Of a stretch of 44,971 nucleotides of DNA, positions 500 to 40,508 are shown one piece after another. The notes under the pieces are model-generated. The model worked only from the letters and a program-made list of their open reading frames with translations. It did no database searches and was not told the origin of the DNA. Each line of letters begins with the position of its first letter. The stretch's first letter is position 1. Position numbers and translations under genes: made by a program. The DNA is from a virus (lineage: Duplodnaviria > Caudoviricetes): positions 1-44,971 of IMG/VR virus record IMGVR_UViG_3300018067_000117; one strand, written 5' to 3'.

Positions 500-2467
500 T
501 TACACCTCCCCTAACAGTTGCAGTGCTTGTGACACCGATATCATCGACTTCGCTTCCGGCACATACGCGCCGATAGACAGGATGGACAGGCCCTCCGCCG
601 CCTTCCACGCCAGCACCCGCTTGATAGCCGGGTCCGCCACGTCCACGCCGTTCAGGACAATTTCCTTGTCCGAGAGGACGATGGACCGTAGGTCCGAGCC
701 CGGAGCAATCCGGCGGAACGTCGTGGCGTACTCCGCCTTCGCAATGACCGTCAGCCGGTCGAACAGCACATGCGTCTGCGGCAACGCCGCATGCAGAAGC
801 TGAAGCACCTTGCCCGTGTGGTCATGCGCCTTCAGGATGTTCAAGAACCGGTTCTCCCCTTCGGACGGTACCAGATCCAGATACAGCTTGCTCACATGCG
901 CCAGCGTTTCCACCACCTTGGTTGCCGCCGCCTGCGGATTCAGAATCTGGTCCCCCAGATAGAGCAGGGCTTCATCCATCGGGTAGGTCGGCACGTCGAA
1001 GATGACCGGTGTCACGTCGAGAGCTTCGCAGGCCATCCGGTTGAAGTCACGAATCAGCCCGTTGGGCTCCGGCTTGATGACCGGGACCGTCTCCGTCCAG
1101 ATGCGGCCCGTCTGCCCGTCGAGACTCAGCGTCTCCACGTCCTTGAACGACTCCACCGAGACACCCACGCCGACGATGCAGGCCCGGTTCATCGCCCGTG
1201 CGACGACTGCGGCATGGCTCGTAAGCCCACCCTTCATCGTCACGATGCCGACTGCCGCCTTCATGCCCGCCACGTCATCCGGTGTCGTCTCGTCTCGCAC
1301 GAGAATGCAGGGTTCCTTGCACTTGATTGCATCTTCCTTGGTGAAGACGGGCTTACCCGTCACCACGCCGCTGCAGGCCGAGATACCAAGATACGCGGGC
1401 TCCTTTTCAAACTTCGGGTCCAGTTGAACCTGCTGGGCTTCATCCAATTGCTTGATGGATACCCGCTTGACCGCTTCCTTCGCATCGATCAGCCCCTGCT
1501 TCACGAAATCCGTGGCGATCTTGATGGCCGCTTGAGGCGTCCGCTTGCCGCTACGAACCTGCAGGAGATATAACTGGCCGTCCTGCACCGTGAATTCGAT
1601 ATCCAACATCTCCCGCTTTTTGTTCTCCAGTTCGATGACCTGTTTCAACAGGGCATAGTGGAGACTGGGGTTCCACTCCTTCATCGCGTCCAGCGGGCTG
1701 GGCGTCACCGCGCCGGAGACGATATCCTCACCCTGAGCATTGACCGCAAACTCCCCGGTCACCGTCATGCCGCCGGTATCAGGGTTGCGCGTGAAGAGCA
1801 CGCCCGTGCCGCTCTGGTCATTCAGGTTGCCGAAGACCATGGCCTGCACCGTCACTGCCGTGCCCCACGAGCGGTCGTACCCGTTATCCTTGCGGTAGAA
1901 TTCCGCCCGCTCGTTGTCCCAGCTTTTGAAGACCGCTTCAATGGCGTTCAGTAGCTGGGTCTTGGCATCCGGAAATTCCACCCCGGTCTGCTCACGATAC
2001 GCATCGAGCGCAAACTTCAGATCCCCGTGGAACGACTCCTTCCGAAGACCGTTCACGACGGACCCATACATCTCCACGAGCCGCTTGAAACTGTCAGCGA
2101 AGCACTTCGGGCCGAGCTTCTGTGCCCAGAGCATGGCGTTGGCCTCTTCGATCCCCACGTTGAGGATCGTATCCATCATGCCGGGGCATGAGACACGGGC
2201 TCCAGACCGCACCGACAGCAACGGCAGATAGCCGAAGTGCTGCTCCAGCTTCTTCAGATACTCCGGTAGTGCCTTGGCAATCGCCTTCATGGTCGTCACG
2301 GGCTTCTTGTCGTACTCGGCCCAGACGGACGTGGGAATGACGAAGCCCGGAGGTACCGGCACGCCTTCGTTGGCGAGCCAGAGGAGCCCTGCGCCCTTGC
2401 CGCCCAACAATTCAGTTGAGCCTGCGACCTCACCCTTTTCGAATCCAAACGGGAAGAACTGCTGCAT
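500..2467 (-). CDS. Pyruvate,phosphate dikinase-like protein (ATP-grasp + phospho-His swivel domain; PEP/pyruvate barrel replaced)
   Basis: Motifs LLGGKGAGL, LSVRSGA, PGMMDTILN, VQAMVFGN, FTRNPDTG, DIEFTV, LQVRSGKR, GGLTSHAAVVAR; about 655 aa. Start ATG 2467 or GTG 2482. Confidence 0.9.
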   Translation of the reverse strand: MQQFFPFGFEKGEVAGSTELLGGKGAGLLWLANEGVPVPPGFVIPTSVWAEYDKKPVTTMKAIAKALPEYLKKLEQHFGYLPLLSVRSGARVSCPGMMDTILNVGIEEANAMLWAQKLGPKCFADSFKRLVEMYGSVVNGLRKESFHGDLKFALDAYREQTGVEFPDAKTQLLNAIEAVFKSWDNERAEFYRKDNGYDRSWGTAVTVQAMVFGNLNDQSGTGVLFTRNPDTGGMTVTGEFAVNAQGEDIVSGAVTPSPLDAMKEWNPSLHYALLKQVIELENKKREMLDIEFTVQDGQLYLLQVRSGKRTPQAAIKIATDFVKQGLIDAKEAVKRVSIKQLDEAQQVQLDPKFEKEPAYLGISACSGVVTGKPVFTKEDAIKCKEPCILVRDETTPDDVAGMKAAVGIVTMKGGLTSHAAVVARAMNRACIVGVGVSVESFKDVETLSLDGQTGRIWTETVPVIKPEPNGLIRDFNRMACEALDVTPVIFDVPTYPMDEALLYLGDQILNPQAAATKVVETLAHVSKLYLDLVPSEGENRFLNILKAHDHTGKVLQLLHAALPQTHVLFDRLTVIAKAEYATTFRRIAPGSDLRSIVLSDKEIVLNGVDVADPAIKRVLAWKAAEGLSILSIGAYVPEAKSMISVSQALQLLGEV

Positions 2468-2506
2468 GATGATGTGCCCCACTCCTTGGGAATTTCTGAC
2501 TTACCC

Positions 2507-2536
2507 AGTGTAGCGCACAAGCCATGCGTTTGTCAA
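2507..2536 (-). promoter_or_regulatory. sigma70-type promoter of the PPDK-like gene
   Basis: TTGACA-N18-TACACT. Confidence 0.75.
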
Positions 2537-2582
2537 CTTCTACCCGCTTGCTGGCGCTTGTCGTTCGTATGCCGACTTCACC

Positions 2583-2611
2583 ACGGTAGCACAGCCGAAT
2601 CCGTTTGTCAA
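2583..2611 (-). promoter_or_regulatory. Second, tandem sigma70-type promoter
   Basis: TTGACA-N17-TACCGT with TG extension. Confidence 0.6.
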
Positions 2612-2751
2612 GGGGTGGTCTTTTTGCCCTTCAGGATGTTGGCGTACTCCGGTTGCTTCACCGGGACTTCCGTCCAGATGAACCGGTCCCCACCCTCCGG
2701 CAGCTTCGGCGGTTCCGGCTTCTCGTCTTTTGTGAGAATTTTCAAGGCCAT
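2608..2751 (-). CDS. Small hypothetical protein (47 aa, not in the ORF track)
   Basis: MALKILTKDEKPEPPKLPEGGDRFIWTEVPVKQPEYANILKGKKTTP; ATG directly follows the upstream TGA. Confidence 0.6.
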   Translation of the reverse strand: MALKILTKDEKPEPPKLPEGGDRFIWTEVPVKQPEYANILKGKKTTP

Positions 2752-4101
2752 TCAGTGTGTTCTCCGGGGATCGCTGCTTCCCCCACCAATATACTCCAAG
2801 TAGACTTCAACAATCGGCACGTCCTTGAGCGTGGGGTCACCTGTCCGATAGGGCTCGCCGCGCTCGACGCGGACCACTCGGAACTGAGCACCGCTGCCAA
2901 GCAGGACTTCGCTCTCCGTCCGTCGTCCTTCTTTTCCAGCTTCTAGATCCTTCGCATCTACCGTGGGGGCCTGCGTGTAGTCGGTGACTTGCCACAACTC
3001 CGGATTCTTCTGCCAGAACAGGTCCGCCAGTTCTTTCGGTCCCATCGGTTCCGGATTCGGGATGCGGGGAAACTCGTGGCGGAGCCGTCGCACGCTCTCC
3101 ACGGACGCCACCTTCGTGCCCGCTGGGAGCACGATGTGGAACCGCACGGCAGACCCGACTTCGTCCTGATGTTCCACCAACACGCCAGAGTGCGAGCCGA
3201 ATCGGTGACCGATGCTTTCCCACTTCCCCAGTGCCGGATAGCTCTTGGCGCGTCCCCCAGCGTCTCCGACCATCGTGGAGGTCAGGCCCTTCTCTTCCCA
3301 GACCGTGCCGTCTTCGGCCATCGCCTGTAAGTCTTCTATCGACACACCGGGCAGATAGGCCCCCCGTTCCACCGTAATCGCTTCAGGTAACTCGTACCCA
3401 TGCACGCCAATGGCTTCGTCCAGCTTGTCTGCTGCCGCTTGCACTCGCGCCAGACGCTCCAGATCTGGGCCTGCCCGCTGGATGCTGAACATCATCGTCG
3501 GTCCACCTTCGACCGGACGGTAGTAGGCGTTGATGACGATGCGTCCGTCCTCTACCCGGTGATATGGATCGTCCGGATCGTAATCTTTCGCACCATGTTT
3601 CCCCATCGGATGCCCAAAGCGGGCAATAGTTTCAGGTGTCACTTCATCGCGGGGATCGACCGGGTAGCCGGTTTTATACTCGCCCTCTTTCACTTTGATG
3701 CTGGGCACCCATTCGTTCTTCTCCGGATCCCAGCCCACCCGTCGCATTTCCTCTGGCGTGGCTGGCCGCACGAAATGATCGACAATCGGCACCTTATAGG
3801 TGCCCCGTCGCAGATCGTTGACGTCGTGGTAGCCGAAGCCTGCATAGTCATCCAGCGCCTTGGCGTGCTCGTGCGGGAGGTTCTTCGCCCACTCCGCCAC
3901 TGGGCCTTGCTCGTGCCACTGGTAACCCTCTTCACTGGTGAACGTGCGCCCGCTCGTCTTCACCCACTGCCCACCCGTCGATGAGCCCTTTGGGCCACGG
4001 GGCTGATTGGGATCGTACTTCTTCGCTCTGGAGACGATGAAGAAATCCCCCGGCTTCATTTCGAAGCGATCCGCGTTGGGGTCTTTTGCAATTGAGTGCA
4101 T
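2752..4101 (-). CDS. VIP2/Alt-like (R-S-E clade) ADP-ribosyltransferase with N-terminal PRG tag
   Basis: ALDDY...VNDLRRG helix, ITVERG, GLTSTM, TESEVLLGSGAQFRVV; N-term KYDPNQPRGPKGSSTGGQW. Confidence 0.8.
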   Translation of the reverse strand: MHSIAKDPNADRFEMKPGDFFIVSRAKKYDPNQPRGPKGSSTGGQWVKTSGRTFTSEEGYQWHEQGPVAEWAKNLPHEHAKALDDYAGFGYHDVNDLRRGTYKVPIVDHFVRPATPEEMRRVGWDPEKNEWVPSIKVKEGEYKTGYPVDPRDEVTPETIARFGHPMGKHGAKDYDPDDPYHRVEDGRIVINAYYRPVEGGPTMMFSIQRAGPDLERLARVQAAADKLDEAIGVHGYELPEAITVERGAYLPGVSIEDLQAMAEDGTVWEEKGLTSTMVGDAGGRAKSYPALGKWESIGHRFGSHSGVLVEHQDEVGSAVRFHIVLPAGTKVASVESVRRLRHEFPRIPNPEPMGPKELADLFWQKNPELWQVTDYTQAPTVDAKDLEAGKEGRRTESEVLLGSGAQFRVVRVERGEPYRTGDPTLKDVPIVEVYLEYIGGGSSDPRRTH

Positions 4102-4334
4102 CAGTAGAGCTTTCCCGGTGGGGCCTGCTCATCGGTCTTCATCCACTCGCCGCCCCACACTTCCAGCACGTACAGGGCCTTACGAGCGTTCTCCGTGGGG
4201 GCATAATAGCCGTTGTTCGGGGGCTGCATCTCTGGCGTGTTCAGCACTCGCTCCAGTTCCCGATTATCTGGGACGGCCCACACCCCATTGTTGACGGTCG
4301 CCAGTTCCCCGGACCCCAATCGAATCGTAATCAC
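4101..4334 (-). CDS. Hypothetical protein
   Basis: 77-aa ORF translationally coupled at both ends. Confidence 0.7.
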   Translation of the reverse strand: MITIRLGSGELATVNNGVWAVPDNRELERVLNTPEMQPPNNGYYAPTENARKALYVLEVWGGEWMKTDEQAPPGKLY

Positions 4335-7018
4335 CGGTATTTCCCCTGCATAATGTCGAAAATCAAATTGAAGTGCTCGGGCCGCTCGCGGGCAAACGTG
4401 ATGGGGTCCGCCAGATACGACTCCACGCCTGTGGACACCATCTCCGTGGAGATGTCATGCGGATAGAGCTTGGCCGAGTACGGGTCTGGAAACTTGCCCC
4501 GCAACGCTTCCTCATCGTCTTCCAGCGCAGGGCTCACCGTCTTCAGCTTGTAGACCTCACGCGGCTTGTTCGCCAGTTGCTCTCGCACGTTAATGGCCGC
4601 TTGCCGTGCCGCGCTACTGTTCAATTCAATGTGGTGCGCCACTTCGTGATGCACCGTACGCTCCAAGTCTCGTCCCTCACCAATCGCAATCCCCGCAATG
4701 GTGGCGTGGGCTCGACGGGTAGCTGATTTTTCCAACTTCAATATGGCCGGAATAGCATACGTCCCGTCCGGGTTTTTGACGAACGGTCCCTCCGTGCCTC
4801 CGAAAATCTCACGGAGCTTGCCCATCTGGTCTTCCGGTATGTTGGTCGGTACGAACGCCCCGGACCCGTCGAACCGCCGGAACTGCTCCAGTGCTCGTCT
4901 CGCACCCGCTGCTACCCCCGGATGCAACGGATTCTTCGGATCGTCCGTGAATTCCAGCTTCGACCGCTCCGCTGGTGCTACCTTCAACAGTTCTCTCGCC
5001 TGTTGATTCAGCGCATGCCGCTTCTTCGACGCCACTTCGAACCGCTCGTGGAACACCTTCTCCAGTGCGTTCGCTCGCTGGTAGGACTCCAGCTTCTTCG
5101 CAGCGGCTCCGTCCGCCTTCAACGGCTTCTTCCGGCCCTTACTCAGATCCTCAGACCACGTTTTCCATGCGTCCGCCAACTCCACCCGCATCCGGTCAAG
5201 AATCACGCCCTCACGGTCAGATCGCTTGACCAGCGCCATGAAATCCCGACGCTTCTGCTCGTGCGGGGACCGATCCCCCCGTGTCTCGGAGAACTTCCCT
5301 TCGGCGTCTCGCGGGTGAAGAACCTCGTCCCATCGTAGCACTTTGACAAATGTTACGTCAACCTTGCGGGCTGTTCCTGACTGGAGAACCTTCACGGTCA
5401 TCGTGTTACCCGGACCCTTGCTCACCACTTCGAACCGAGTACCACGGGGAAGAATCACTTCCTCTTGATGATCGTACCCGTGTGCGCCCAGTTCTTCGTT
5501 CACGTCGATGTGACCCAACCCCTTAGGAGCCAACACAGTCAAAATCGAATGATTTTCCGCTCTATACGCCCCGATATCCAGACGAATGTCATCAATTTTT
5601 GATGAATTCTTCGTAGTAGACACGTAACCATCATCTTGATACACGTCCCCAACATTTAGACCGTCCATCACGTAATTCGGCACAGTCCTAGTCAAAGACG
5701 TATCTTCAGATAAGGTGTTATTCCGCATGTGAGCATCAAGCAACGCTACTTTGTCGCCCAATAGACTCTCAAGCTCCACCCCTTGATCCCATGTTTCCCC
5801 TTGGGCTCGATGTCGCTGACCCGTCCTTCGAAGCGTGTCGTTGAGATAACTCGCACCACCCTGCACATAATCAAAGATGGCGAAGTTGATATCGTGCCCC
5901 CGCTGGAGTCGGTCGTACTCCGCTTTATCGAAATCCTTCGGCGCACCTTCGATGATCTTTGTCCACTGGCCTTCGGCATCACGGGGCTGAGCAGGACTAT
6001 ACTTCAGGGCCAACCGGGTCAGGGCTTCAATCGCCGCGATTTGCTTGCGGCCCTTGAACGTCCACCGTCCGGACGGCTCCTGCGTCATGTACTGGGTGAT
6101 GTAGGGATAGGCGGCAGCGTCCGCTTGGTAGAACGCCAGTTGCAGCGTGACGAAGTCTGATGGGTTCATCCCCACCTTCTTCGCCTTCGCCGTCAGCTTC
6201 GCCGCAACGGAGACATCTGTCTCGTCACTCCAGCCTCGGAACAACGGCCCGATCAGGTCGTGGTTCAGTAGCTCCGTGGCCAGTGTGATATCCTTCTCGC
6301 TGAACCCCTCCTCACGAAGCACTTTTTGAAGGATGGGAATGGTGTGCTCGTGTTGATGCTCCTTGCCTTCGCCTTCCTCAATCGCTTCTGCCTTCCCGAT
6401 ATCGTGCAGAGCAATGGCCGACGCCATCAGCGTCTCAACATCACTCCCGAAACGGTCGGAGATACTCGCTAGGTCTTCACGGGATAGCTGCGTTTCCCAC
6501 TCCCGGCCTACGTCCGTGGTGTGGGACTCGATGCTGCCCATCTCGGTGTGTGTCGAGCGGGGATAGTGCTTCGCCGTGACCGGGTACTTGGCCTTGAACG
6601 CTGCGATCTGCCCGCCCACTTTCGCCCACTTGCCAGACGCATCACGGGGCTGAGTCGGATCAAACTTGACAATCCATTCTGGACGCACACCTCCAGCAAA
6701 ACGAGCCGTGCGGGAACCTTTGGGACTCTTGCGGCCCGGTGTCAGGGGCTTCTCAAAAAAGAACGCCGACTTCGGTGCCCGAATTTCCACCACCGTGGCT
6801 CCGGGTGTCGGCTCCGGATAGTCCAGTCCCTCCGCGAACCGCTGAGCCTCTTCACGGGATTCCGTGGCCCAGACCAGTCCCTCCTTACCGGGCTTCAGTC
6901 CCTCTCGATGGATGGCCTCCACGTCTCGCTCACGGGTGCCGTGGTACAGCGTGACGAACTGTCCTTTGACATCCCGTGGGTGCTGGGAAGCATCCCACTT
7001 CAAGAGAGCCGCAAACAT
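4331..7018 (-). CDS. Polyvalent protein: Tpt1/KptA-like ART + HD domain + VIP2-like ART + zincin metallopeptidase
   Basis: LYHGT...GLKP; ALHDIGK...H...NHD...QAD; LTRT...YVSTT...QEEVILPRGTRFEVV; HHEVAHHIE...E. Four PRD-x2-G-x-W/F repeats precede the domains. Probable start ATG 7018. Confidence 0.8.
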   Translation of the reverse strand: MFAALLKWDASQHPRDVKGQFVTLYHGTRERDVEAIHREGLKPGKEGLVWATESREEAQRFAEGLDYPEPTPGATVVEIRAPKSAFFFEKPLTPGRKSPKGSRTARFAGGVRPEWIVKFDPTQPRDASGKWAKVGGQIAAFKAKYPVTAKHYPRSTHTEMGSIESHTTDVGREWETQLSREDLASISDRFGSDVETLMASAIALHDIGKAEAIEEGEGKEHQHEHTIPILQKVLREEGFSEKDITLATELLNHDLIGPLFRGWSDETDVSVAAKLTAKAKKVGMNPSDFVTLQLAFYQADAAAYPYITQYMTQEPSGRWTFKGRKQIAAIEALTRLALKYSPAQPRDAEGQWTKIIEGAPKDFDKAEYDRLQRGHDINFAIFDYVQGGASYLNDTLRRTGQRHRAQGETWDQGVELESLLGDKVALLDAHMRNNTLSEDTSLTRTVPNYVMDGLNVGDVYQDDGYVSTTKNSSKIDDIRLDIGAYRAENHSILTVLAPKGLGHIDVNEELGAHGYDHQEEVILPRGTRFEVVSKGPGNTMTVKVLQSGTARKVDVTFVKVLRWDEVLHPRDAEGKFSETRGDRSPHEQKRRDFMALVKRSDREGVILDRMRVELADAWKTWSEDLSKGRKKPLKADGAAAKKLESYQRANALEKVFHERFEVASKKRHALNQQARELLKVAPAERSKLEFTDDPKNPLHPGVAAGARRALEQFRRFDGSGAFVPTNIPEDQMGKLREIFGGTEGPFVKNPDGTYAIPAILKLEKSATRRAHATIAGIAIGEGRDLERTVHHEVAHHIELNSSAARQAAINVREQLANKPREVYKLKTVSPALEDDEEALRGKFPDPYSAKLYPHDISTEMVSTGVESYLADPITFARERPEHFNLIFDIMQGKYR

Positions 7019-7019
7019 C

Positions 7020-7499
7020 CTAAGACTCTTGAATCCGCAACCAGAGTGTCGCTTTCGCAATCGTGGTCACGGACGCGACGTTGAAGCCAATCGAATCCCA
7101 CTGGGCCACCGCTGTCGTCCACGTCGAGACGCCCGCCGCACTCACGCCCTTAGCTTGGGCCGACGCCAGCGCAATCGGGGCTGACGCACTGATCTTGTGC
7201 GTGGCTGGCACCGGGACGACTGGGAGGGCTTGCGTCCCCGCGTGCTTGGACACCTCAACTGAAATGGACCCTGACACGTCGGCTTCAATACTCCAGCCGA
7301 TAATGGTCCCGGCGAAATCGACCTGTATGGAGCCTTTGAACCCGGTCGTAATAGCCGATGCGCCTCCATCCAGCGATAGACCCACATTGCGAATACTCGG
7401 CAGGGGAACATACCGGGCATCGGCTTCGGCCTGCGTGATGCCGCCGCCACCTGTGCTCTCGCCCGCTGGGGGAGGCAGTGTCAAGATTTGTCCACTCAT
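7020..7499 (-). CDS. Putative virion/fibre-associated beta-rich protein
   Basis: SD GAGGAG; N-term ILTLPPP...GGGG then QAEADARYV linker; Ala/Ser/Thr/Gly-rich. Confidence 0.6.
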   Translation of the reverse strand: MSGQILTLPPPAGESTGGGGITQAEADARYVPLPSIRNVGLSLDGGASAITTGFKGSIQVDFAGTIIGWSIEADVSGSISVEVSKHAGTQALPVVPVPATHKISASAPIALASAQAKGVSAAGVSTWTTAVAQWDSIGFNVASVTTIAKATLWLRIQES

Positions 7500-7507
7500 G
7501 GCACTCC

Positions 7508-7870
7508 TCAGAAAAAGCGAGCGGTGACGTTGACGGCATTCGTCAGGGTGACCATTCGCAGACGGGCGAACTTCGCCACCACGTTCGTCGCTTCGATGCG
7601 TCCCGCGAACGTGGGGTTCAGCCCCGTGTTCAACGTGGCCTTAGTCACGTAGTACCTGTCTTCGTTGGTGTCGGCCATTTGCAAATCCACGGCGAACGCA
7701 CCGGGGTTGGCGGCGAAAAGAATTTCTACCGATAGGCAATTCGGAAAATTCTCATGTCGTTGCAATCCCACGGCAAGACTGCTGGAGGATGCTGCCACGG
7801 ACTCATTGTTCCAGACCGCCGCTGGACGGCCAGCTTCCAAGGTTTGGGCGGTAGTACCGTAAGCAGGCAT
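7508..7870 (-). CDS. Putative virion adaptor protein, paralog A
   Basis: SD AAGGAG; clear paralog of 8819..9190 (SSSLAVGLQR.EN..NCLSVE.LFAANPGA). Confidence 0.75.
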   Translation of the reverse strand: MPAYGTTAQTLEAGRPAAVWNNESVAASSSSLAVGLQRHENFPNCLSVEILFAANPGAFAVDLQMADTNEDRYYVTKATLNTGLNPTFAGRIEATNVVAKFARLRMVTLTNAVNVTARFF

Positions 7871-7880
7871 AGCTACTCCT

Positions 7881-8084
7881 TCAAATCAAATGCGGCTTCT
7901 GCGTCATTTCAAACGACGCATTGATCTTGTCGATACCCATCGGCACAGTCTGTGCGCCCCGTAACCGGTGCTTCGGAAACCGTGCCCGCAGGATGTCCGC
8001 GTATCGTTTCTTCTTTTTCTGCTTCGGGGTCAGGCCAATCTCCGGAGCCGTGTCCGTCGCCGTGCGAATGAAGTGAGACATCAC
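7881..8084 (-). CDS. Small basic hypothetical protein
   Basis: 67 aa, KQKKKKRYADILRARF; fills the operon gap. Confidence 0.6.
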   Translation of the reverse strand: MMSHFIRTATDTAPEIGLTPKQKKKKRYADILRARFPKHRLRGAQTVPMGIDKINASFEMTQKPHLI

Positions 8085-8094
8085 CCTGCTCCCA

Positions 8095-8811: not shown

Positions 8812-8818
8812 AGCGGCC

Positions 8819-9507: not shown

Positions 9508-9790
9508 GTTTCTTCCTCCACCCTTCCACGACACTGCTAGTCACCAACGCCCGGACACCGGGTCTGATTCTCCGGTGCGAGTGCGGAGTAGGTGTCGGAA
9601 GCGACTCAGCGGTGGTCAATTCCACGAACAGACTCGTCACCAAACTCCTGCACTCAATTGCAGTCATTGTGGCCTGTAGCCGCACGGTCACCCCAGTGCT
9701 GGTGACTTCTTCCCCTTCAATAACCGGTGGCTCAATGACACCCGCGCCGGTCGTCAGGCCATAGAGCCCCGGATAGAGCCCGCCGAGCAT
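9500..9790 (-). CDS. Hypothetical structural-module protein
   Basis: 96 aa, coupled to the collagen gene (TGATG). Confidence 0.6.
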   Translation of the reverse strand: MLGGLYPGLYGLTTGAGVIEPPVIEGEEVTSTGVTVRLQATMTAIECRSLVTSLFVELTTAESLPTPTPHSHRRIRPGVRALVTSSVVEGWRKKHG

Positions 9791-12720
9791 CAGAAATACC
9801 AGCCCCAGCTACCGGCTTGCACCACCACATCGGTGTTGGCCAATTCGTTGGCGAAGCGGACGGCGAACGTCCCATTCGCCGTGCAGACATAGCGGCCTTG
9901 GATGATGTGAATCAAATCCACGGCTGGCGTCACCGTGCTGGTCAAGAGCGTCATGTCATCCCGCACCGTGTTGTGCCGCTCCGTCCACGTCGCCACGCCT
10001 GCGGCCCCACTGGCAATCACCTGATTCAGATGGTGAAAGCTCAGGGCTCCTGCGGGACAGTTCACCCCGCACTTGTGGCCCGTGTTTGCCTGTGCCGACT
10101 GGAACACCACGTAGAAATAGAAGGCATACACCTGACCACTGACAACGGGGAACGTGAGGTTCGTCACATCCGCGAACACCCCGGCTCCGGCGTTGATCGT
10201 CTGGTTCGCTGTCTTCTTCAACAGGTTGAACAGCACCGGGCCGGGGATGCCTTGGATGCCCTGAATCCCCTGTGGCCCCACCTCTCCGGTGTCACCCTTC
10301 GGACCCTGAGCCCCGGTATTCCCCTGCGGACCCTGAGCGCCTTGGGCTCCGGTGTCGCCCTTGATGCCTTGCGGTCCCTGTGGACCGGTCACCGGGGTTC
10401 CGGGTACGCCCTGTGGTCCTGCTGGTCCTTCCGGCCCTGCTGTCCCAGTGTCACCCTTGATACCCTGCGGCCCTTCTACCCCCTGTGCGCCTTGAGCACC
10501 CGTAGCACCGGTTGGGCCTTGTGGCCCTGCTGGACCCTGAGGACCGGCAGGACCGGCTGGGCCTTGTGGAAACGCCCCTGCGTCGGCCCATTCACCCGTG
10601 TCTGTGTCCCAGACCCACAGATGCCCGGTGTCGGCCACAATCCATGCGTCACCGGGTTCTCCGGTTGGTGGTAAATCGGCAACGGTCGCTGCCGTGCCCT
10701 GCAGATCGATGCCTGCGCCCTCGGGGCCTTCTGGACCTTCGGGGCCTTCGGCACCGGGCACACCCTGTACGCCTTGTGGACCAGCAGGGCCTTCTGGTCC
10801 CGTGGGACCGGCAGGACCGGCCTGTCCTTCGGCTCCCGGTATACCCGGTACACCCTGTGCGCCTTGTGGACCGACGGCTCCCTCGGTTCCTTCCAGTCCA
10901 GAGGGACCGGCCACACCCTGTGGACCTTGGGGGCCTTCTGGACCCGTGGCTCCGACCGGGCCTGCTGGCCCCATCACCCCCGGTGACCCTTGGGCTCCCG
11001 CAGGGCCTTCAGGACCGTCCGCGCCCGCTGGTCCGACTGGTCCTACTGGACCTTGTGGCCCCGGATCACCATCGGTGCCACGGAAGCCTCGTGGGCCTTG
11101 GTCACCCTGTGCGCCCGGATCACCTTGGGGACCGATGTCTCCCTGATCGCCCTTTGGTCCTGCGGGGCCTTCTGGACCCGTCGCACCGGCTGGTCCCTCC
11201 GGTCCCGTCCATCCCTGTTCTCCTTGCGGTCCTGCTGGTCCAGCCGCTCCCGGAGCCCCTTGAGCACCTTGTGGACCCGTTGCACCGTCTGCTCCAGCCG
11301 GTCCAATTGGTCCCGCAGCACCTGTCGGGCCTGCTGGACCTTGATCACCTTGTACACCAGCTACTCCTTCGGGGCCTTGGGGTCCAACAGCGCCAGTATC
11401 GCCTTGAGTTCCTTGCGGACCTTCGGGACCAACTGGTCCCTGAATTCCTTGGGGGCCTTCTGGACCAGCTTCCCCAGTTTCTCCAACCGGACCAGCGGGT
11501 CCGATGGGTCCACTTTCACCTTGCGGGCCGACGTCACCGGTATCTCCTTTCGGGCCTGCGGGTCCGGGCGGGCCTTGCGGACCTTCTGGTCCGGGCGGTC
11601 CTTGGCTCCCCGGAGGACCGGGCACACCACCCGGACCCTGTGGACCGGGCTCTCCCTGATCACCCTTTGGACCCTGTGGACCAATAGGACCGGGAATCGT
11701 ATCCGCGCCTTCCGACAAGAGCACCACCGCGAGTCGGCTGTTGTGCCCAAACTCCGCCACGCCTCCCGGTCCACTCTGCGACACCAACGACACCGCTACC
11801 GAGAACCAGTCCGTGGAGGGTATGACTTGCTCGATCTGCCAGACTTGATGCTTCACGGCCACGTCAGCATCCTGAATCAGAATGCGAGCCGTGGGCGGCG
11901 TCATCTCAAAAAACACATGCGCGTCGAAGCCTTCATCCGTCAACCAGTCCACGGCGATCAGAGTTGCTTCGGTCTGATTGGCCGCATTCCACCGGATCTT
12001 CCCGGCTCCGGGGTCTTGCATCTGTTGGTTATTCGCATCAGCCTTGTAGAAAAACACCGATGAGGATGGGGCGATGGGCAGATCACTGATATCACTCGCC
12101 GGGATCTTGTCCAGCGTCGAGATAACGCCCGTGCCCTCCATACTCCGCATGTAGCCAGTCGGCAGTTCTGACAGGGCCTGAGCGTTCGGCAGGTACTCTT
12201 CTCCGCTCGCACGTCCAATGGCGTTCCGGCTTTGCACAATGAACGGGGTGGCTCCTGCTCCGGCCACATCCAACCGTCCATCCGTGATCGTCAGATAATC
12301 GCCCAGTGCAATTTCTTCGGACGGTCCCGGTCCAGTCTCCCGGCCTCTGAGTAGCTGACCGGTGGTAAAGGGCTTGCCCTCTTGGGCCAACGTCTGTAAA
12401 TCCAGCAGCGTCTTATCGGTGATCGTGGCGGCGATCAGGTCGCCTGCGACGATGCTCCGGGCTGTCGTGCCTTCTTGAGCCCGTTGCAACGTGAACGTGT
12501 CGCCGTCTCTCGCCGTGACACGAGCAATTTCAGCATTGGTGGGATCGGGGAGCACGTCTTTGGGCCAGACGGTGGCGTTGAAGGGCGGGTCAGGAAAGCG
12601 ATCCCCGTGCCCGGTGGGGACCATCAACTCTGCGCCGGATACAGCGGGCCACGGAGCTTCGGCTACCGCCGATACCGCAAAATTCTTGTAGTCATCCACG
12701 GCAAGAAGCTCCCTGTGCAA
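9790..12720 (-). CDS. Collagen-like tail/head fibre protein
   Basis: Two long Gly-X-Y tracts, internal GDAWIV...GHLWVWD module, N-term [19 protein letters not shown]-terminal beta domain; TTG start. Confidence 0.9.
10240..11695 (-). repeat. Collagen (Gly-X-Y)n coding repeats
   Basis: 9-nt periodicity (GPQ/GPA/GPE triplets), interrupted at about 10575-10715. Confidence 0.95.
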
Positions 12721-12957
12721 TCAATTGCCAACTTGCGGGATCACGTCACGCATCACCGTGTGCAGAGCGGTCGCTAGTTCTTCAGACGGCTCTCCGAAGA
12801 CGCGAATGACAACTTCACCCGACATTTCTTGAACGATCACCGCGAGTGCTTGCAGACCGGTCGCTTCCCAGTCTTGGTCATCCTCTTCTTCGTCATCATC
12901 AATGGGCACAAGATTGCCGTGCTCATCGATCACATAGTCATCGGCTAGGCCGTCCAT
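12721..12957 (-). CDS. Acidic hypothetical protein
   Basis: GGAGG before ATG 12957; DDDEEEDD tract. Confidence 0.6.
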   Translation of the reverse strand: MDGLADDYVIDEHGNLVPIDDDEEEDDQDWEATGLQALAVIVQEMSGEVVIRVFGEPSEELATALHTVMRDVIPQVGN

Positions 12958-14726: not shown

Positions 14727-14760
14727 ACAAAGCAAGAGCCGGATTGCTCCGGCTCCTTGC
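14727..14760 (-). terminator. Intrinsic terminator between accessory and virion blocks
   Basis: GAGCCGGA-GCAA-TCCGGCTC followed by TTGCTTTGT. Confidence 0.7.
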
Positions 14761-14777
14761 ACTTGATTGCAGCGTTT

Positions 14778-16529: not shown

Positions 16530-16556
16530 CGCTGCCCTCCGTGGCAATCACTTGCA

Positions 16557-18752: not shown

Positions 18753-19237
18753 GCTGCACTTGATTGCACGGCCTTCCACACCGGCCCGCCCGTCAACAGG
18801 GCATGGGCCTGCTGGATGTTGGCAGGCAGGACGCCCTTCCGGGGGTTCGTCTTCACGAACCACTCGCGGACGACGTCCATGTTGAACCGGCCTTCGTGGT
18901 TGTCGTCCAGAATGGCCAGTCTGACCGGCTGGCCGTGCCCCTGCAGCCACTGCTCGATTTCCCGGCCCCTGACCCCCATCCCCTGCCACTGGGGCACCAC
19001 CGTGGTCCCCAGCACGCGCCGGGAGGCAATCCCGAAGTGGTTCAGGATGGCCTGCAGTTCTGGCAGGGTGTAGTGGTGTCGCCAGTCGGAACTGACCACT
19101 ACCTGAGCATCGAGCTTGGTCACCAACCGCGCCACTCGTGCCGCCAGCCGTGGCTCAATCGCCACGTCTTCGTAGTACCGGTGATCCCGATTCAGTACGC
19201 CGTCGATATCAAGAAAAACCACACGCTGCACCATCAT
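18749..19237 (-). CDS. HAD-superfamily phosphatase (HAD_SAK_2-like)
   Basis: VFLDIDGVLN, VVSSDWR, RGREIEQWL, AILDD. Confidence 0.85.
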   Translation of the reverse strand: MMVQRVVFLDIDGVLNRDHRYYEDVAIEPRLAARVARLVTKLDAQVVVSSDWRHHYTLPELQAILNHFGIASRRVLGTTVVPQWQGMGVRGREIEQWLQGHGQPVRLAILDDNHEGRFNMDVVREWFVKTNPRKGVLPANIQQAHALLTGGPVWKAVQSSAA

Positions 19238-21662: not shown

Positions 21663-21851
21663 TCACCATCTCCCTGCACTTGATTGCACTTCCCGCAGAA
21701 CCGCATTCGGCACCATCGACCGATCCCCGTTCTCGTACTCGATGCGGTAGAACACCGTCAGGCCCAGCGGGAGGACTTCAATCACCTGCACCTGTTCCCC
21801 CGTGTCCACCCGTTTCGCCACCTGATTGACTTTGAACACTCTCGTGACCAC
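21663..21851 (-). CDS. Small SH3/KOW-like protein
   Basis: FKVNQVAKRVDTGEQVQVIEV...YRIEYENG. Confidence 0.55.
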   Translation of the reverse strand: MVTRVFKVNQVAKRVDTGEQVQVIEVLPLGLTVFYRIEYENGDRSMVPNAVLREVQSSAGRW

Positions 21852-23654: not shown

Positions 23655-23690
23655 GCTGCCCTCCTTGGCAATTGATTGCCGACTCCACCC

Positions 23691-24692: not shown

Positions 24693-24982
24693 ATCGCCTG
24701 TGGTGCATCCGATTGCACCGACTCGACCAGTTGCCACTGCGACGAGTAGACCACCCCGTTGATGCCCCAGCCGTTCTTGTAGAGCCACGACTGCGACTGT
24801 GAGCCGGGAACGAGCTTCAGGAGGCCCTTCTTCATCAGGCTGACCGCCGCATTGTGACGGCGGACGCCGAAGTGCCGCTTGCGCCCGCTGGGGCCTTGGC
24901 ACCCGTGGTCGATGCCCACGTAGTGCCACGGGTTGCGGGTCACTTCGTCCAGCAGTTCCTGTTCTGACTTGTTCAACTTCAT
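24689..24982 (-). CDS. Hypothetical protein (possible winged helix)
   Basis: MKLNKSEQELL...AAVSLMKKGLLKL; SD AAGGAG. Confidence 0.65.
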   Translation of the reverse strand: MKLNKSEQELLDEVTRNPWHYVGIDHGCQGPSGRKRHFGVRRHNAAVSLMKKGLLKLVPGSQSQSWLYKNGWGINGVVYSSQWQLVESVQSDAPQAI

Positions 24983-25226: not shown

Positions 25227-25689
25227 ATCGGGGGACCAGACTCTCCATCTTCTGGCCTCGCTGGCTCCGCTTCGTCGGTACCCGCATCAGGGTATGCAGC
25301 GCCCGCTCATATCGTCGCCGCATGCTCACCGGGAGCCTGTCCAGCGTCTCGTCTCGGAGATGGTCCTGTAGGTCCGCGATCTTCACCACCAGCGCCAGCA
25401 GGTTCCGCTTGGCCCGAAGAGTTTCGATGTACTCCGCGTAGGTTTCGCTGCCTCTGGTCAGGAGCAGGACGGCATCGGCAATCGCCGGGGCAATCCCGGC
25501 CTTCTCCAGATCACGATGGGTCAGGTCGCTGTCTTCCAGCACGTCATGGAGCCACGCCACCTCTTTGGCCTCTGGGCTGTCCACCAGCGCCACCACTCGC
25601 TCTAAGTGCTGGACGTAGGGATGCCCGCCCCACTTCTCGACTTGACCCTCATGGGCCTTTCGCGCAATCTGTTCTGCAATTGAGTGCAT
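25207..25689 (-). CDS. Small alarmone hydrolase-like (RelA/SpoT/Mesh1 HD domain)
   Basis: AHEGQ..K...PYVQH...V, AWLHDVLED, LLTR, VKIADLQDHL. Confidence 0.85.
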   Translation of the reverse strand: MHSIAEQIARKAHEGQVEKWGGHPYVQHLERVVALVDSPEAKEVAWLHDVLEDSDLTHRDLEKAGIAPAIADAVLLLTRGSETYAEYIETLRAKRNLLALVVKIADLQDHLRDETLDRLPVSMRRRYERALHTLMRVPTKRSQRGQKMESLVPRFDKSFG

Positions 25690-27818: not shown

Positions 27819-27848
27819 AGTGTAGCACACAACTTTGGCGTTTGTCAA
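27819..27848 (-). promoter_or_regulatory. sigma70 promoter (leftward of a divergent pair)
   Basis: TTGACA-N18-TACACT with TG extension. Confidence 0.8.
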
Positions 27849-27870
27849 ATGCAATCAATTGCCTTGTGAT

Positions 27871-27899
27871 TTGACAAATCTTTTTCGTTGTGCTAAGAT
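27871..27899 (+). promoter_or_regulatory. sigma70 promoter (rightward of a divergent pair)
   Basis: TTGACA-N17-TAAGAT with TG extension. Confidence 0.8.
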
Positions 27900-30747: not shown

Positions 30748-31362
30748 TCACTCTCGTGCAATCAAGTGCGGGATTTTGCGGGCGTTCAGGATCGACTCCA
30801 CCGTGGTCACGGCTTCGAAGATTTGTTTCTGCACGCTCATCCCATCCGGAAACGTCGTAGTCACCGATGCGCCCCGTGCCGTGGTAGTACTCACGGGGCC
30901 TTTGAATTCATCGAGTCCCAGATCGAACCGGAGCTTCTGGAGGTCCAGCAGGATCTGGCGATAATTGCCCACCGCTTCGTTCACACTGGTAAACGTCCGC
31001 TCTTCCTTCGTCGCCTTGGCTAAGAGGGTCATCACCAGTGTGCGCTGCGTCTCACTCAGTTCCTCCAAGCGGGCCAGCACCGGCACCGAGACGTGTTGCA
31101 GCCGGGTGATGTTCGGCTTCCCTACGGCGAGAATGCGCTTAGCCTCTTGGGCTCCGAAGATGCCCTCTGCCGCCGCTCGTCGCAGGCGATTCAACTGCTG
31201 GGTGAGGGTTAGTTCCGCCACGTCCTGAAACAGGCCCCACCCTGCTGGCGGAGCCTGCTGAATCGTGCGGGCCAGTGCCTGCGCCGGTTCGCCCCGGATC
31301 AGGGCATTCAGGATCTTCCGAAAGGGCTCTTCACCCAGTGCTTGGAGACGTTCAAAGGCCAT
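30748..31362 (-). CDS. Helical protein, candidate terminase small subunit
   Basis: Position near terL; HTH-like N-term plus coiled coil (inference only). Confidence 0.45.
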   Translation of the reverse strand: MAFERLQALGEEPFRKILNALIRGEPAQALARTIQQAPPAGWGLFQDVAELTLTQQLNRLRRAAAEGIFGAQEAKRILAVGKPNITRLQHVSVPVLARLEELSETQRTLVMTLLAKATKEERTFTSVNEAVGNYRQILLDLQKLRFDLGLDEFKGPVSTTTARGASVTTTFPDGMSVQKQIFEAVTTVESILNARKIPHLIARE

Positions 31363-34189: not shown

Positions 34190-34223
34190 GGCACTCCTTG
34201 CTGCAATCAATTGCAAAGGGGCG

Positions 34224-34374: not shown

Positions 34375-34536
34375 TTACTTCTCGATATTCGCCCACCGGG
34401 CCAGTGCCAGATCCTGCTTCGCTTCCGCCGCCTTCTGTACCGCGAGTTTGCGCGTGATGCTTGCGTCCTCTTCGGCGCGTCTGAGAATGCGGCGTTGTTC
34501 CGGGGGGCTGAGTTCACGCTTCTTGGTTTTGGGCAT
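34375..34536 (-). CDS. Small basic helical protein
   Basis: MPKTKKRELSPPEQRRILRR...; SD GGAG. Confidence 0.55.
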   Translation of the reverse strand: MPKTKKRELSPPEQRRILRRAEEDASITRKLAVQKAAEAKQDLALARWANIEK

Positions 34537-34855
34537 GTTGTTCTCCGGCCTTCTTTGCTCGCCAGTCATCCCATCGTTTTTTGGCCATTTTACGAGCGTT
34601 TTCTTGCTTTTCTGCCTTTGACATTACCGCATACTTCGCCTTGCCGCCTTTTGCCCCGAATTGCTTGGCTTCTGCAGCCGTCCACCTCGTGGACGTTTTA
34701 TGCTTAGCGGCTACTTGGTCTTGTGGCTTTGGTAGTGGGGTTCCCAGCGGACGTGGATTCCATCCATCTTCATCATGCCATCCAGCTTCTGCACAAGAAT
34801 ATACGTTCCAATGCACTAACTTACACAGCCCGCACTTCACAATTTGGGGAGGCAT
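34514..34855 (-). CDS. Basic KGG-motif protein, probable nucleic-acid binder (leaderless)
   Basis: FGAKGGKA...MSKAEKQENARKMAKKRW; ATG 6 nt below the -10 box. Confidence 0.65.
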   Translation of the reverse strand: MPPQIVKCGLCKLVHWNVYSCAEAGWHDEDGWNPRPLGTPLPKPQDQVAAKHKTSTRWTAAEAKQFGAKGGKAKYAVMSKAEKQENARKMAKKRWDDWRAKKAGEQHAQNQEA

Positions 34856-37164: not shown

Positions 37165-37184
37165 TTGCAATCAGTTGCACGAAC

Positions 37185-37460: not shown

Positions 37461-37597
37461 TCACCTCCGGATAATCCCTGTGCATTGAGTTGGCGTGGGT
37501 TCCGTCATTTTATGTGTTTATCGCCACCCACAAGCATTCACACAACCTTCGAAGATGCGGCTGGGCACGTACCTTCGACCGGAGACTGGGGGGTCAC

Positions 37598-37753: not shown

Positions 37754-37764
37754 GCTGTTCTCCT

Positions 37765-38335: not shown

Positions 38336-38336
38336 C

Positions 38337-39128
38337 TTAGCCCTCGACCGGGGCCACCGTAATGTCGTACATCGGGAACTTCTCCGCGATGCGCTTCAGG
38401 AGCGGTTCGAAGCCCGTGGTGTCAATGACCTCGTCCAGCGAGAACGGCTTCTGGACGGTGTTCGTGCCACCCACGTACCCGGCGCAGATGTTCTCCAGCG
38501 CCACGGTGTCGTACTCCGTGTGCAGTTCGCCCTTGGCCTTGGCCAGCGCCTGCGTGACCGCTTCGGCCTGATCGGGCTTCAGCTTGAACGTCATCTTGAC
38601 GACTTCGTCCGTGGTCTTGGCGGTCTTCTCGTCGCCCTCCGTGGGCTTGAGCGCCTTGATCGCCGCCTGCAGTTCCACGACCGTCAGCTTCTCGGCCTTG
38701 GCCACCCAGTCGTCCACGTTCTCCGGCGTGATGATCGGAGCCAGATCCTTGAGCTTGGTCCAGCCCAGATGGCTGACCTTGTCCCACGGGATCATCTTGG
38801 TGACGAGGTTGTCGTAGATGCTGACGAGATAGCGGGCCTTGCGGCCCTGAAAGCCGTACTTCTCGTACACGAAGTCATCGAAGTAATCGAAGCCTTCGAA
38901 CCACGAGTTGTCGTTGATGAGCTTGAGCACCCCACCGAGCTTGAAGTAGTTGACTTCAATGTTCTCGGCCAGATTCTCCGCCATGTTGAGCGCCTTCGTC
39001 TTGCTCAGGCTCTCCACTTCATGGGCGATGTCGAGAATCAGGTTGCCCGTCTTCTCGGTCTTCTTCTTCCCGATGGTCGTGGTGTCGGGCTTTTCCTCGA
39101 CTACCGCGCCTGCCGCTGCTTCTGCCAT
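38337..39128 (-). CDS. Probable DNA-binding protein (DUF3102-like helical domain)
   Basis: YFKLGGVLKLI...FDDFV...GFQGRKARYL...LGWTKL; strong codon bias. Confidence 0.6.
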   Translation of the reverse strand: MAEAAAGAVVEEKPDTTTIGKKKTEKTGNLILDIAHEVESLSKTKALNMAENLAENIEVNYFKLGGVLKLINDNSWFEGFDYFDDFVYEKYGFQGRKARYLVSIYDNLVTKMIPWDKVSHLGWTKLKDLAPIITPENVDDWVAKAEKLTVVELQAAIKALKPTEGDEKTAKTTDEVVKMTFKLKPDQAEAVTQALAKAKGELHTEYDTVALENICAGYVGGTNTVQKPFSLDEVIDTTGFEPLLKRIAEKFPMYDITVAPVEG

Positions 39129-39165
39129 GTGAATTCCTCCGAATTCCAAAAATTGAACCTGACAT

Positions 39166-39195
39166 ATGATGCCATGAGGGGCATCAGTTTGTCAA
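39166..39195 (-). promoter_or_regulatory. sigma70-like promoter
   Basis: TTGACA-N18-CATCAT. Confidence 0.5.
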
Positions 39196-39219
39196 CTGTT
39201 CAAAATCGTTAGGAAATCC

Positions 39220-39978
39220 CTACGCGGGGACTGCCTCCGGCTGGGCCTTCTTGCCCTTCTTGCCCTTGGCCACTGCCTTGGGCGCGGGGGGCGCGGCCTT
39301 CGTCGCCTTGGCCTTCTTCTCCCCGGAATCGAAGGTGATGCCCGGAAAATCCTTCTTCATGCGGGCAAACTTGGCATCCATCACCGTGACCGGGGGCTCA
39401 CCGGTCAGATCGAAGCACAGCCGCCAGTACACGTCGATGGCTCCGGACAGGAACGAGCGGATCTGGTTCTGCCGCTCCATCTCTGCGGCCTGCTCAGCGG
39501 CCACGTCCACGACCTCCACGTTCCGCTCTTCCTTGGCCCCGCCCTTCTGGGGCATGGGGACCATCTTCTTGACCGTGGTCATCGTGGGGCTCACGAACAG
39601 GCTCTGCTCCGCCTGCCGAAGGATATCCGTCGCCAGACTGTCCAACTGCAGGATGGCGGATCCGCGAGTGCCTACGAGCTTGGCCTTCTTGGTGCTCGAT
39701 GGCAGCTTGACCTTCAGCACGCGAGCAATCGCCGTCAGGTCGTAGCCGATATCGCCCAGTGTCGCCGTGGCGTGATCCTTCATCTCCTGTGTCTGCGGCA
39801 GACCCAGCAGATACTGTCCCATGATCTGCAGCAACTGCCCCGTGTGGCCTTTGAGCCCCACGGCACCCCGCACCACCTGTGTCCGCACCGTGTTCTTCGA
39901 CACCATCCGCAGAGCGGTCTTGGTGGCCTTCACCGGCAGCGTCTTCGCCACATTCCGTCGAAATGTCCCGATTTGCAT
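39220..39978 (-). CDS. Hypothetical protein with Lys/Ala-rich tail
   Basis: SD AAGGAG; ATG coupled to the RuvC stop. Confidence 0.7.
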   Translation of the reverse strand: MQIGTFRRNVAKTLPVKATKTALRMVSKNTVRTQVVRGAVGLKGHTGQLLQIMGQYLLGLPQTQEMKDHATATLGDIGYDLTAIARVLKVKLPSSTKKAKLVGTRGSAILQLDSLATDILRQAEQSLFVSPTMTTVKKMVPMPQKGGAKEERNVEVVDVAAEQAAEMERQNQIRSFLSGAIDVYWRLCFDLTGEPPVTVMDAKFARMKKDFPGITFDSGEKKAKATKAAPPAPKAVAKGKKGKKAQPEAVPA

Positions 39979-40508
39979 CACATCAACTCCTTTCCACTCC
40001 TTGGAGGGTCTAACATCGTTCCAAGACTGGCCCACCCAATAGTTACGCCTTGCACATTCCGAATCGCATCCCACCCGAGTTGTGCCATCTGGGCGAGTGC
40101 GTACGCATCGACAATATCGTGTGAATGACTCTGATACGCCCAGCGTTGCTTGACGGACAGGGCCATCATGTCCTTGGTCGCATTGCCCTTGCCCGTGGTC
40201 CACTTCTTCAGGACCGTGGGCGGGACTTCCACCCATGGAATCCCCAGCGTATAGAGCACGCTACGCACCATGGTGCCGACTTCGACCAGCTTTACGAACG
40301 CACCGACGTTCCTGACGTAGGCATAGCCCTCAATGGCCACGAACGCTGGTTGCCAGATTTGCAACGTCTCTGCCACCTCGTTGGCAATCAGTTGCAATCT
40401 GAGGTAGCCCCGCTCGTTGGGCACCTGAACCGTCTTGCCCCGATCCTCCTCATCCCCAACCAGCGCCATGCCCGTGCAGGTCGCACAATCAAGCCCTACG
40501 GTCTTCAT
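39978..40508 (-). CDS. ruvC: RuvC-like Holliday junction resolvase
   Basis: VGLDCA..TG, VAIEG, VPPTVLKKW.TGKGNATKD, DIVDAYALA. Confidence 0.9.
   Translation of the reverse strand: MKTVGLDCATCTGMALVGDEEDRGKTVQVPNERGYLRLQLIANEVAETLQIWQPAFVAIEGYAYVRNVGAFVKLVEVGTMVRSVLYTLGIPWVEVPPTVLKKWTTGKGNATKDMMALSVKQRWAYQSHSHDIVDAYALAQMAQLGWDAIRNVQGVTIGWASLGTMLDPPRSGKELM

Follow-up and report, generated by a model that had tools for sequence, protein, structure and literature searches.

The viral record IMGVR_UViG_3300018067_000117 (Duplodnaviria; Caudoviricetes), whose whole length of 44,971 nucleotides was analysed and is called the window here, carries copies of a 14-bp near-palindrome, TGCAAT-YR-ATTGCA, which selection maintains across the full length of the phage genome at intervals of about 2-3.5 kb. 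An earlier note, made from the letters of the window alone, had listed 16 copies, described them as a palindrome repeated every ~2-3 kb, and proposed that they are sites for a dimeric protein that coats the genome. The proposal of a genome-coating site for a likely dimeric protein is supported, and the sites are conserved in relatives and evenly spaced. Gene distribution and natural motif variants further indicate that the protein encoded at 38337-39128, one of three binders suggested at the time, probably reads the motif.

All 16 copies (16/16) were found where the earlier note had placed them, with the same letters, and its gaps between successive sites are correct (Table 1). Fifteen of the 16 fit KGCAMTYRAKTGCM when up to one mismatch is allowed, where 0.48 would be expected and 0/100 dinucleotide shuffles reach 15; the copy at 24704, which falls outside this pattern, is the weakest (15.9 bits). 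Scores of a symmetric position weight matrix are bimodal, with 13 positions at 20 bits or more versus none in order-4 Markov simulations. The count thus exceeds both backgrounds, and a chance origin of the sites is ruled out by the shuffles, the Markov simulation and the synonymous resampling given below. The name palindrome holds only in part: the profile is symmetric, but the central two bases are mostly CA or TG, found in both orientations on one strand, and the first base may be G and the fifth C. The same applies to the spacing, which is indeed more even than random placement (gap coefficient of variation, CV, 0.41 versus 0.91, p=0.00035; smallest gap 971 bp, p=0.0016), but the longest gap reaches 5.6 kb (4087-9649) and the last 4.6 kb are siteless. 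Using gene calls from our own script, which recovers 142/147 annotated stops in the cultured relative DLP5, six sites are in-gene, three lie at gene edges (two over ATG) and seven are intergenic. The contexts described earlier also stand, with copies inside the conserved PPDK-like (1318) and RuvC-like (40383) genes, at codons equivalent to those in DLP5; 1-2 bp from -35 boxes at 18755, 27850 and 37166; in leaders at 16543, 23667 and 34202; and over start codons at 4087 and 25675. Because the site overlaps the start codon, the last two genes both start MHSIA although they are unrelated.

The window record is part of a phage of ~117 kb. Relatives of its terminase at 81-84% identity lie on contigs of up to 119 kb, the complete ones being G001 and G002, and among cultured phages DLP3/DLP5 (55%), the Vibrio VHS1 group, RcZahn and RHph_TM16 (TM16) are closest. 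A TGCAA-N4-TTGCA lattice covers 11/11 genomes of this clade, 80-120-kb tailed phages whose hosts include Stenotrophomonas, Vibrio, Rhodobacter, Rhizobium and Pseudomonas, so that the motif is conserved in related phages. With the motif refined per genome, and RcZahn scanned over the first 100 of its 101.6 kb, we counted 16 sites in the window, 43 in G001, 37 in G002, 36 in DLP5, 30 in VHS1, 28 in RcZahn, 27 in TM16, 34 in VH2_2019, 52 in RcMenchie, 55 in L338C and 33 in SM1. Mean gaps are 1.8-3.6 kb, with CV 0.40-0.66 (p <=0.0012 in 11/11), and individual gaps range from 0.7 to 8 kb. The lattice dyad was not found in the terminase outgroups Monty and EP_H11 (2/2), and Molly_3 gave no match to the pattern. 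Variant motifs at even spacing were seen in G007 (TGCACT, 12 sites, CV 0.39) and G009 (TGCAGA, 28 sites, CV 0.43); altogether, spacing is even in 13/15 genomes that have a motif.

Selection is most visible where sites lie in coding DNA. Synonymous-codon resampling was run on eight of the 11 clade genomes, and in-gene sites exceed it in all of them (8/8), with 6 observed versus 0.16 in the window and 26 versus 1.39 in DLP5. These sites rely on rare codons, and in the PPDK and RuvC genes, whose products are 43-46% identical between the window and DLP5, they occupy equivalent codons. When the non-coding sites were held fixed and the in-gene sites scattered over coding DNA, the observed CV was lower in 11/11 genomes (p <=0.0046) and the maximum gap was below random in 10/11, L338C not being significant (p 0.61). 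This null rules out gene boundaries as the source of the even spacing, and shows that the in-gene sites fill holes between the intergenic ones.

A part of the sites lies close to promoter-like sequences. In the window, a site is found no more than 40 bp from seven of the 17 promoter-like sequences, versus 0.56 expected; the distances are 1, 1, 2 and 11 bp upstream of the -35 box or 8, 10 and 33 bp downstream of the -10 box. Nearby sites accompany 6/21 promoter-like sequences on the main strand of G001, 3/15 in G002 and 10/15 in VH2_2019, the last placed 8-13 bp upstream of -35, and in L338C 9/55 sites stand 7-12 bp before TTGACA. The strict promoter pattern yields at most two promoters in DLP5, RcZahn, RcMenchie, SM1 and TM16, which are outside these counts. 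An operator geometry of the type used by the plasmid protein KorB, with offsets of 1-13 bp to -35, is thus present in the window, G001, G002, VH2_2019 and L338C; in addition, the prohead protease gene is preceded by a site in 8/10 genomes. As an observation in its own right, the -35 box often lies within a short dyad, TTTG-N-CAAA (10 copies versus 0.31 expected), sometimes as part of a longer hairpin (for example, 23119-23097 and 27838-27876).

Of the three binders suggested earlier, only the 38337-39128 protein tracks the motif. The candidates at 19708-20028, found only in the window, and 34514-34855, found only in the window and G001, were dropped because they are too narrowly distributed. 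A ParB-domain gene beside the terminase was rejected as well: it occurs in DLP5, RcZahn, TM16, VH2_2019, RcMenchie, L338C and SM1 and is missing from G001, G002 and VHS1. The 38337-39128 protein has 396 homologues, with no function given among the 120 listed, and a profile of 86 of them matches 11/11 lattice genomes and 0/2 outgroups. Its gene directly follows those for RecA, resolvase, exonuclease and RuvC in the window and DLP5. A site precedes the gene in 6/11 genomes and at 26/75 loci; the 26 compare with 2.8 under a uniform null but are marginal against genes with upstream gaps, and autoregulation, rejected as proof of the reader, is only suggestive.

In an AlphaFold model of the candidate reader (pLDDT 78.9), residues ~56-165 resemble a ParB/KorB-type helix-turn-helix DNA-binding domain, the top match being the DNA-binding domain of ParB on parS (Z 7.1, root-mean-square deviation 4.5, 102 aligned residues), with KorB (Z 6.7 and 6.1), Spo0J (6.0), StbA, SopB and VirB among the others. 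The modelled part before this domain consists of helices only, with no domain for cytidine triphosphate (CTP) hydrolysis, and the CTP-binding motif GxxR is absent in 11/11 reader homologues of the clade; the best 25 of 53 weak Pfam families for the 86 aligned members include no ParB family. The C-terminal part has a conserved strand-helix-helix pattern, and its model weakly matches CopG, ArtA, AtaR and MazE (E above 2.7), which suggests that residues ~175-220 are possibly a ribbon-helix-helix dimerisation part. The ESM Atlas returned unnamed viral clusters, together with DUF1016/ParB-HTH and DUF3102 clusters that serve as leads (under 0.9).

Gene and motif also occur together in bacterial genomes. 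In the Acidobacteriaceae metagenome-assembled genome (MAG) G004, all exact sites (19/19) fall within the opening 48.1 kb of a single contig, with none in the other ~4.65 Mb, and this 48-kb prophage carries the reader gene (G004:C20:1-50040; L164, L172, L173). Its lattice runs as far as 48,113; a gene for a large serine recombinase follows closely, and the GC content rises here from ~0.55 to 0.62-0.68. Among 40 other genomes of the same order, 37 are siteless, two hold one site (G080 among them) and G109 holds four. The 61 Reyranellales genomes gave a similar picture: the reader is present in three, which hold 19, 31 and 19 exact sites, and the other 58 hold 0-3, with no site at all in 50/58. 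The reader gene of G042 and G044 is surrounded by host genes, has no phage neighbours and encodes a protein with a shortened C-terminus, and a site lies upstream of it; in G006 it follows phage tail genes, the 20 kb around it that were examined having no site. Ten of the 19 sites of G044 cluster within 2.44-2.69 Mb, none of them more than about 170 kb from the reader gene; a matS-like terminus-centred set was rejected, as the cluster is ~0.5 Mb from the point opposite dnaA/hemE. The Reyranella reader and its sites are possibly a domesticated phage regulator. The scattered copies on these host chromosomes (G006, G042, G044; L166, L175-L191, L211-L228) are mostly GTGCAATYRATTGCAC.

The G004 prophage is a clade member apparently integrated in its MAG, and five other members tested are without an integrase: neither a serine recombinase nor a tyrosine integrase was found in 5/5 clade genomes searched. 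Its reader homologue is 69% identical to the window protein, which is a hint, and no more, to the host of the window phage.

Natural variation of the protein was compared with that of the motif in 74 readers, after 15 near-duplicate or Reyranella rows had been dropped and with at most the first 60 kb scanned per genome. A significant local half-site was found for 54/74. All three readers with the peptide GWTKLR have TGCACTT (3/3), and 0/51 other motif-bearing readers do, so that in the sequences compared the Lys-to-Arg change tracks the TGCACT variant. The tree places L117 in a supported clade other than that of L127 and L130, giving at least two origins of the GWTKLR/TGCACTT pair. Passages of PMC3597684 describe SopB R219 and KorB R240, in a helix outside the helix-turn-helix, as setting specificity, and by analogy the GWTKLK helix of the reader may be equated with it. 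More variants (TGACAT, TGAAAT and TGAAAC-like) were seen beside the reader homologues L123, L141, L162 and L145, several directly upstream. An Azospirillum prophage (G005:C21:1-46500; L233-L235) has a reader match with an internal stop, a sparse lattice of 6 sites in 45 kb, and a second dyad, TGGATCG-N4-CGATCCA, present in 13 copies.

Taking these results together, the reading that we favour, at somewhat short of an even chance, is that predicted dimers of the 38337-39128 protein bind the near-palindrome as a KorB-like, probably non-sliding regulator of the whole genome; given this reader, a mainly transcriptional purpose seems to us slightly more probable than not. One helix-turn-helix and the next helix would read each 7-bp half-site, and the purified protein is predicted to bind TGCAATCAATTGCA specifically, with a change of Lys127 to Arg shifting its preference to TGCACTTAAGTGCA. 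Sites 1-13 bp upstream of -35, or just downstream of -10, would locally damp promoters of the host polymerase, and in-gene sites would act as roadblocks or loop anchors that leave no long stretch free, so that the regulator blocks or confines transcription between promoters. KorB has proximal operators 4-10 bp upstream of promoters and represses as a sliding CTP clamp from more than 1 kb; in the passages of the same report on mutants with an unclosable clamp, repression occurs only from proximal sites (PMC11790492). A KorB-like domain that lacks the clamp would act only near its sites, and covering a genome would therefore need many sites and few long gaps; as this is the pattern observed, a genome-wide regulator is favoured. 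DLP5 is reported to persist as a phagemid (PMC5834331), which would give silencing a purpose: the regulator might keep a plasmid-like prophage quiet, or shut down early transcription. A bolder version, which we regard as doubtful, is a self-encoded chromatin ruler, in which a clamp-less ParB-type protein bridges sites maintained 2-3 kb apart, if need be through recoding of genes, folding and silencing the viral chromosome, with an amino-acid-to-base code (Lys127 to Arg, TGCAAT to TGCACT) and with domestication and chromosome seeding in Reyranella.

Several observations weigh against the favoured reading. Co-occurrence with the lattice is shared by all core genes of the clade, and the 11/11 match between reader and lattice therefore does not by itself single out the 38337-39128 protein. 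The fold scores are middling, all below 8, with the Rubisco chaperone Raf1 tying at Z 7.0; a Foldseek search with the reader model (E 0.8-2.8) and PDB sequence searches with the protein gave nothing significant. The reader gene lacks an upstream site in the window, G001, G002 and VHS1, and 27% (140/522) of genes that follow a gap of at least 60 bp are preceded by a site, against which the counts of 6/11 genomes and 26/75 loci give p 0.047 and 0.083. Nine of the 16 window sites are away from recognisable promoters, and it is not obvious why a pure repressor should require even spacing. The variant TGCACTT genomes G008 (13 sites) and G010 (25 sites) are uneven (CV 0.82; p 0.40 and 0.23), and a fourth protein with the Arg, L163, has no detectable motif in 13.6 kb. 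As for the bacterial genomes, the Reyranella cases amount to one or two events on the tree, and G109, which has no reader, carries 5 sites in a low-GC island of 21 kb with a single phage-like gene; we read this as a relic, although it still counts against a strict link between gene and motif.

The main rival keeps the same reader and makes its purpose architectural: dimers or tetramers would bridge sites into loops of a few kb for recombination-driven replication, segregation or packaging hand-over, with promoter effects secondary. This is possible, though in our judgement rather unlikely. The gap-filling in-gene sites of 11/11 genomes suit a spacing requirement better than a regulon, and bridging would agree with the position of the gene directly after RecA, resolvase, exonuclease and RuvC (window, DLP5), with the C-terminal strand-helix-helix pattern and the weak ribbon-helix-helix matches given above, and with the clustering of 10/19 G044 sites around the reader gene. 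However, the fixed offsets of 1-2 bp or 8-10 bp to -35 and the site before the prohead protease gene in 8/10 genomes point to transcription, a gap range of 0.7-8 kb is loose for a ruler, the G042 and G044 proteins are without the C-terminal part, and the G044 cluster, about 0.5 Mb away from the position opposite dnaA/hemE, does not form a terminus set of the matS kind. The homologue in DLP3, gp62, does not figure among 21 proteins of ghost particles (PMC7326821), which says little because the DNA is released first in that preparation. The same reader could also serve protection, with a protein every few kb halting processive nucleases or translocases of the host, such as RecBCD/AddAB or SMC-type Wadjet, or marking the phage DNA as self during degradation of host DNA. 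A maximum-gap constraint, seen in 10/11 genomes, is what a block on processive enzymes predicts, and the sites are confined to phage DNA, ending where the prophage ends; yet protection leaves the promoter phasing and the Reyranella chromosomal sites unexplained, and DLP3/DLP5 DNA reportedly resists most restriction enzymes by apparent modification, which is another protection route. We consider this explanation improbable.

Slightly less probable still is that the sites are read by a host protein, such as a LacI- or AphA-type regulator, or by another core protein of the phage. The 14-bp TGCAATCGATTGCA form resembles LacI-family operators, G109 has sites without a reader gene, and other core genes co-occur with the lattice. 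Against such a reader, the motif is kept across hosts from several bacterial groups, host chromosomes are siteless in 50/58 reader-less Reyranellales and 37/40 genomes of G004's order, and the sites follow the reader in G042 and G044, where it stands without phage neighbours. The partition role that the earlier note had also considered fares worst, and we think it very unlikely. Here, parS-like sites would form a dispersed centromere partitioning a plasmid prophage, read by the 38337-39128 protein or by the terminase-side ParB-domain protein, an idea that draws on the DLP5 phagemid (PMC5834331), on the report of VHS1 as extrachromosomal (PMC3148565), on the ParB-type fold of the reader model and on the ParB-domain gene of the seven phages named above. 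A ParA-type ATPase (PF13614) was found in 0/5 genomes, however, where the control matched in 14/14; the ParB N-terminal (CTPase) domain is absent from G001, G002 and VHS1 despite their full lattices, 11/11 readers have no GxxR motif, and a full lattice is kept in an apparently integrated prophage.

Table 1. Sites of the near-palindrome in the window, and the candidate reader gene with its upstream hexamer
Feature	Coordinates	Strand	Context
Site	1318..1331		Inside PPDK-like gene (DAIKCK); DLP5 site at equivalent codon (AAIDCK)
Site	4087..4100		Over start codon of gene 2752-4101 (MHSIA)
Site	9649..9662		Between collagen-repeat tail fibre gene and gene 9187-9507; in short open reading frame dropped by caller
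Site	12716..12729		Over stop codon; tail fibre gene start 16 bp downstream
Site	14758..14771		Intergenic; 73 bp upstream of gene 13233-14684
Site	16543..16556		Leader; 13 bp upstream of RapZ-C-domain gene
Site	18755..18768		Last codons of HAD gene; 2 bp upstream of TTGACA -35 box (18752)
Site	21675..21688		3' end of small gene; next start 11 bp downstream
Site	23667..23680		Leader; 10 bp downstream of -10 box, promoter-like sequence 23720-23691
Site	24704..24717		Weakest copy; gene 3' end; 11 bp upstream of TTGACA (24692)
Site	25675..25688		Over HD-phosphohydrolase start codon (MHSIA); downstream of promoter-like sequence
Site	27850..27863		Between divergent promoter-like sequences; 1 bp from minus-strand -35 (27848), 7 bp from plus-strand -35 (27871)
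Site	30757..30770		3' end of gene 30748-31362 (DLP5 gp113 homologue); upstream of large terminase gene
Site	34202..34215		Leader; 8 bp downstream of perfect TTGACA-17-TATAAT promoter-like sequence (34252-34224)
Site	37166..37179		1 bp upstream of TTGACA (37164)
Site	40383..40396		Inside RuvC-like gene (LQLIA); in-gene site in 5/10 genomes for this gene
Candidate reader	38337..39128	-	263 amino acids; PHROG 17202; DLP5 gp66 homologue
TTGACA hexamer	39190..39195	-	61 bp upstream of candidate reader gene; no adjoining site in window genome

The window has minus-strand genes nearly throughout, including those for a PPDK-like protein, a collagen-repeat tail fibre, DNA ligase, the large terminase, two methyltransferases, RuvC, exonuclease, resolvase and RecA. 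The phage-borne PPDK-like gene (500-2467), without a match for the C-terminal catalytic domain, is kept in eight clade genomes and has a motif copy inside it in 5/8; a PPDK query found no viral loci. Two large genes (2752-4101 and 4331-7018) give weak ADP-ribosyltransferase/HD-domain matches and show similarity to head maturation proteases, of polyvalent-protein type. The gene just upstream of the candidate reader (39220-39978) occurs only in the window, G001, G002 and the DLP group, and its likely counterpart in DLP3, gp61, was detected in ghost particles.

No description of the lattice was found in a literature search whose scope ended short of supplements, subscription papers and the original VHS1, L338C and SM1 genome papers. 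The string 'palindrom' is absent from the main text of PMC8601537 and PMC7326821, and the literal 14-mers led only to one unrelated yeast paper. Selection that acts on site spacing strongly enough to dictate codons implies a process at the level of the whole chromosome, which none of the searchable papers describes for these phages. If the favoured reading is true, dense fixed sites replacing a sliding clamp would be a second solution to KorB's problem, and could explain how plasmid-like prophages without ParA or an integrase stay quiet; with the reader proven, one protein would control and organise an entire viral chromosome. Since motif and candidate gene occur in the cultured phages RcZahn and RcMenchie (host Rhodobacter capsulatus), VH2_2019 (Vibrio natriegens) and L338C (Rhizobium), and natural variants predict specificity switches, the regulator reading is directly testable. 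The lattice also offers a sequence marker for this phage group and a lead for the dyad repeats of Cluster O mycobacteriophages discussed below.

ParB/parS, Noc/NBS, MatP/matS and the dispersed centromere of phage N15 use palindromes on the 14-16-bp scale that are read by dimers and act on chromosome behaviour. Such sites are few in number or restricted to a single chromosome region, and CTP is required by ParB and Noc, whereas here the whole replicon is evenly covered and no CTPase or ParA was found in the genomes searched. Centromere-type clustering is likewise absent, the sites being under-dispersed over the whole genome.

The IncP plasmid RK2 has about a dozen KorB sites, whereas complete phage genomes have 27-55, evenly placed and many of them in genes. 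KorB slides by means of a CTPase clamp at its N-terminus and has KorA and IncC as partners, whereas the phage protein is without clamp domain or motif and no ParA was found with the phage lattice; no second dyad that could serve a KorA-like co-repressor stood out in DLP5, G001 and G002, where no directed search was made. The likeness lies in palindromic operators dispersed over the replicon, some promoter-proximal and some far (PMC11790492), and, at middling scores (Z 6.1-6.7), in the resemblance of the model to the ParB-type DNA-binding domain, with KorB specificity partly outside the helix-turn-helix according to passages of PMC3597684. The phage system is thus KorB-like in site geometry and departs from that family in CTPase and ParA.

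Among phages, the earlier note's comparison with the stoperators of Cluster A mycobacteriophages fits loosely. Stoperators are many repressor sites in a temperate phage, proposed to silence by blocking transcription, and in being genome-wide they are like the present sites. As a passage of PMC4351075 describes them, however, they are asymmetric and oriented with transcription, whereas the sites here are near-palindromes with a ParB-type candidate reader. The parts of the same paper on Cluster O report more than 30 17-bp dyad repeats, about a third of them coding, predicted to be dimer-bound and of unexplained function (PMC4351075), which resembles the present case in many dyad-symmetric sites through a phage genome, partly in coding DNA. 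The Cluster O sequence, TGTTCGG-N3-CCGAACA, is not matched by the TGCAAT-YR-ATTGCA consensus, and those passages place its repeats more densely towards the right end and mostly not at promoters (PMC4351075). The closest described systems are KorB/OB and the unexplained dyad repeats of Cluster O.

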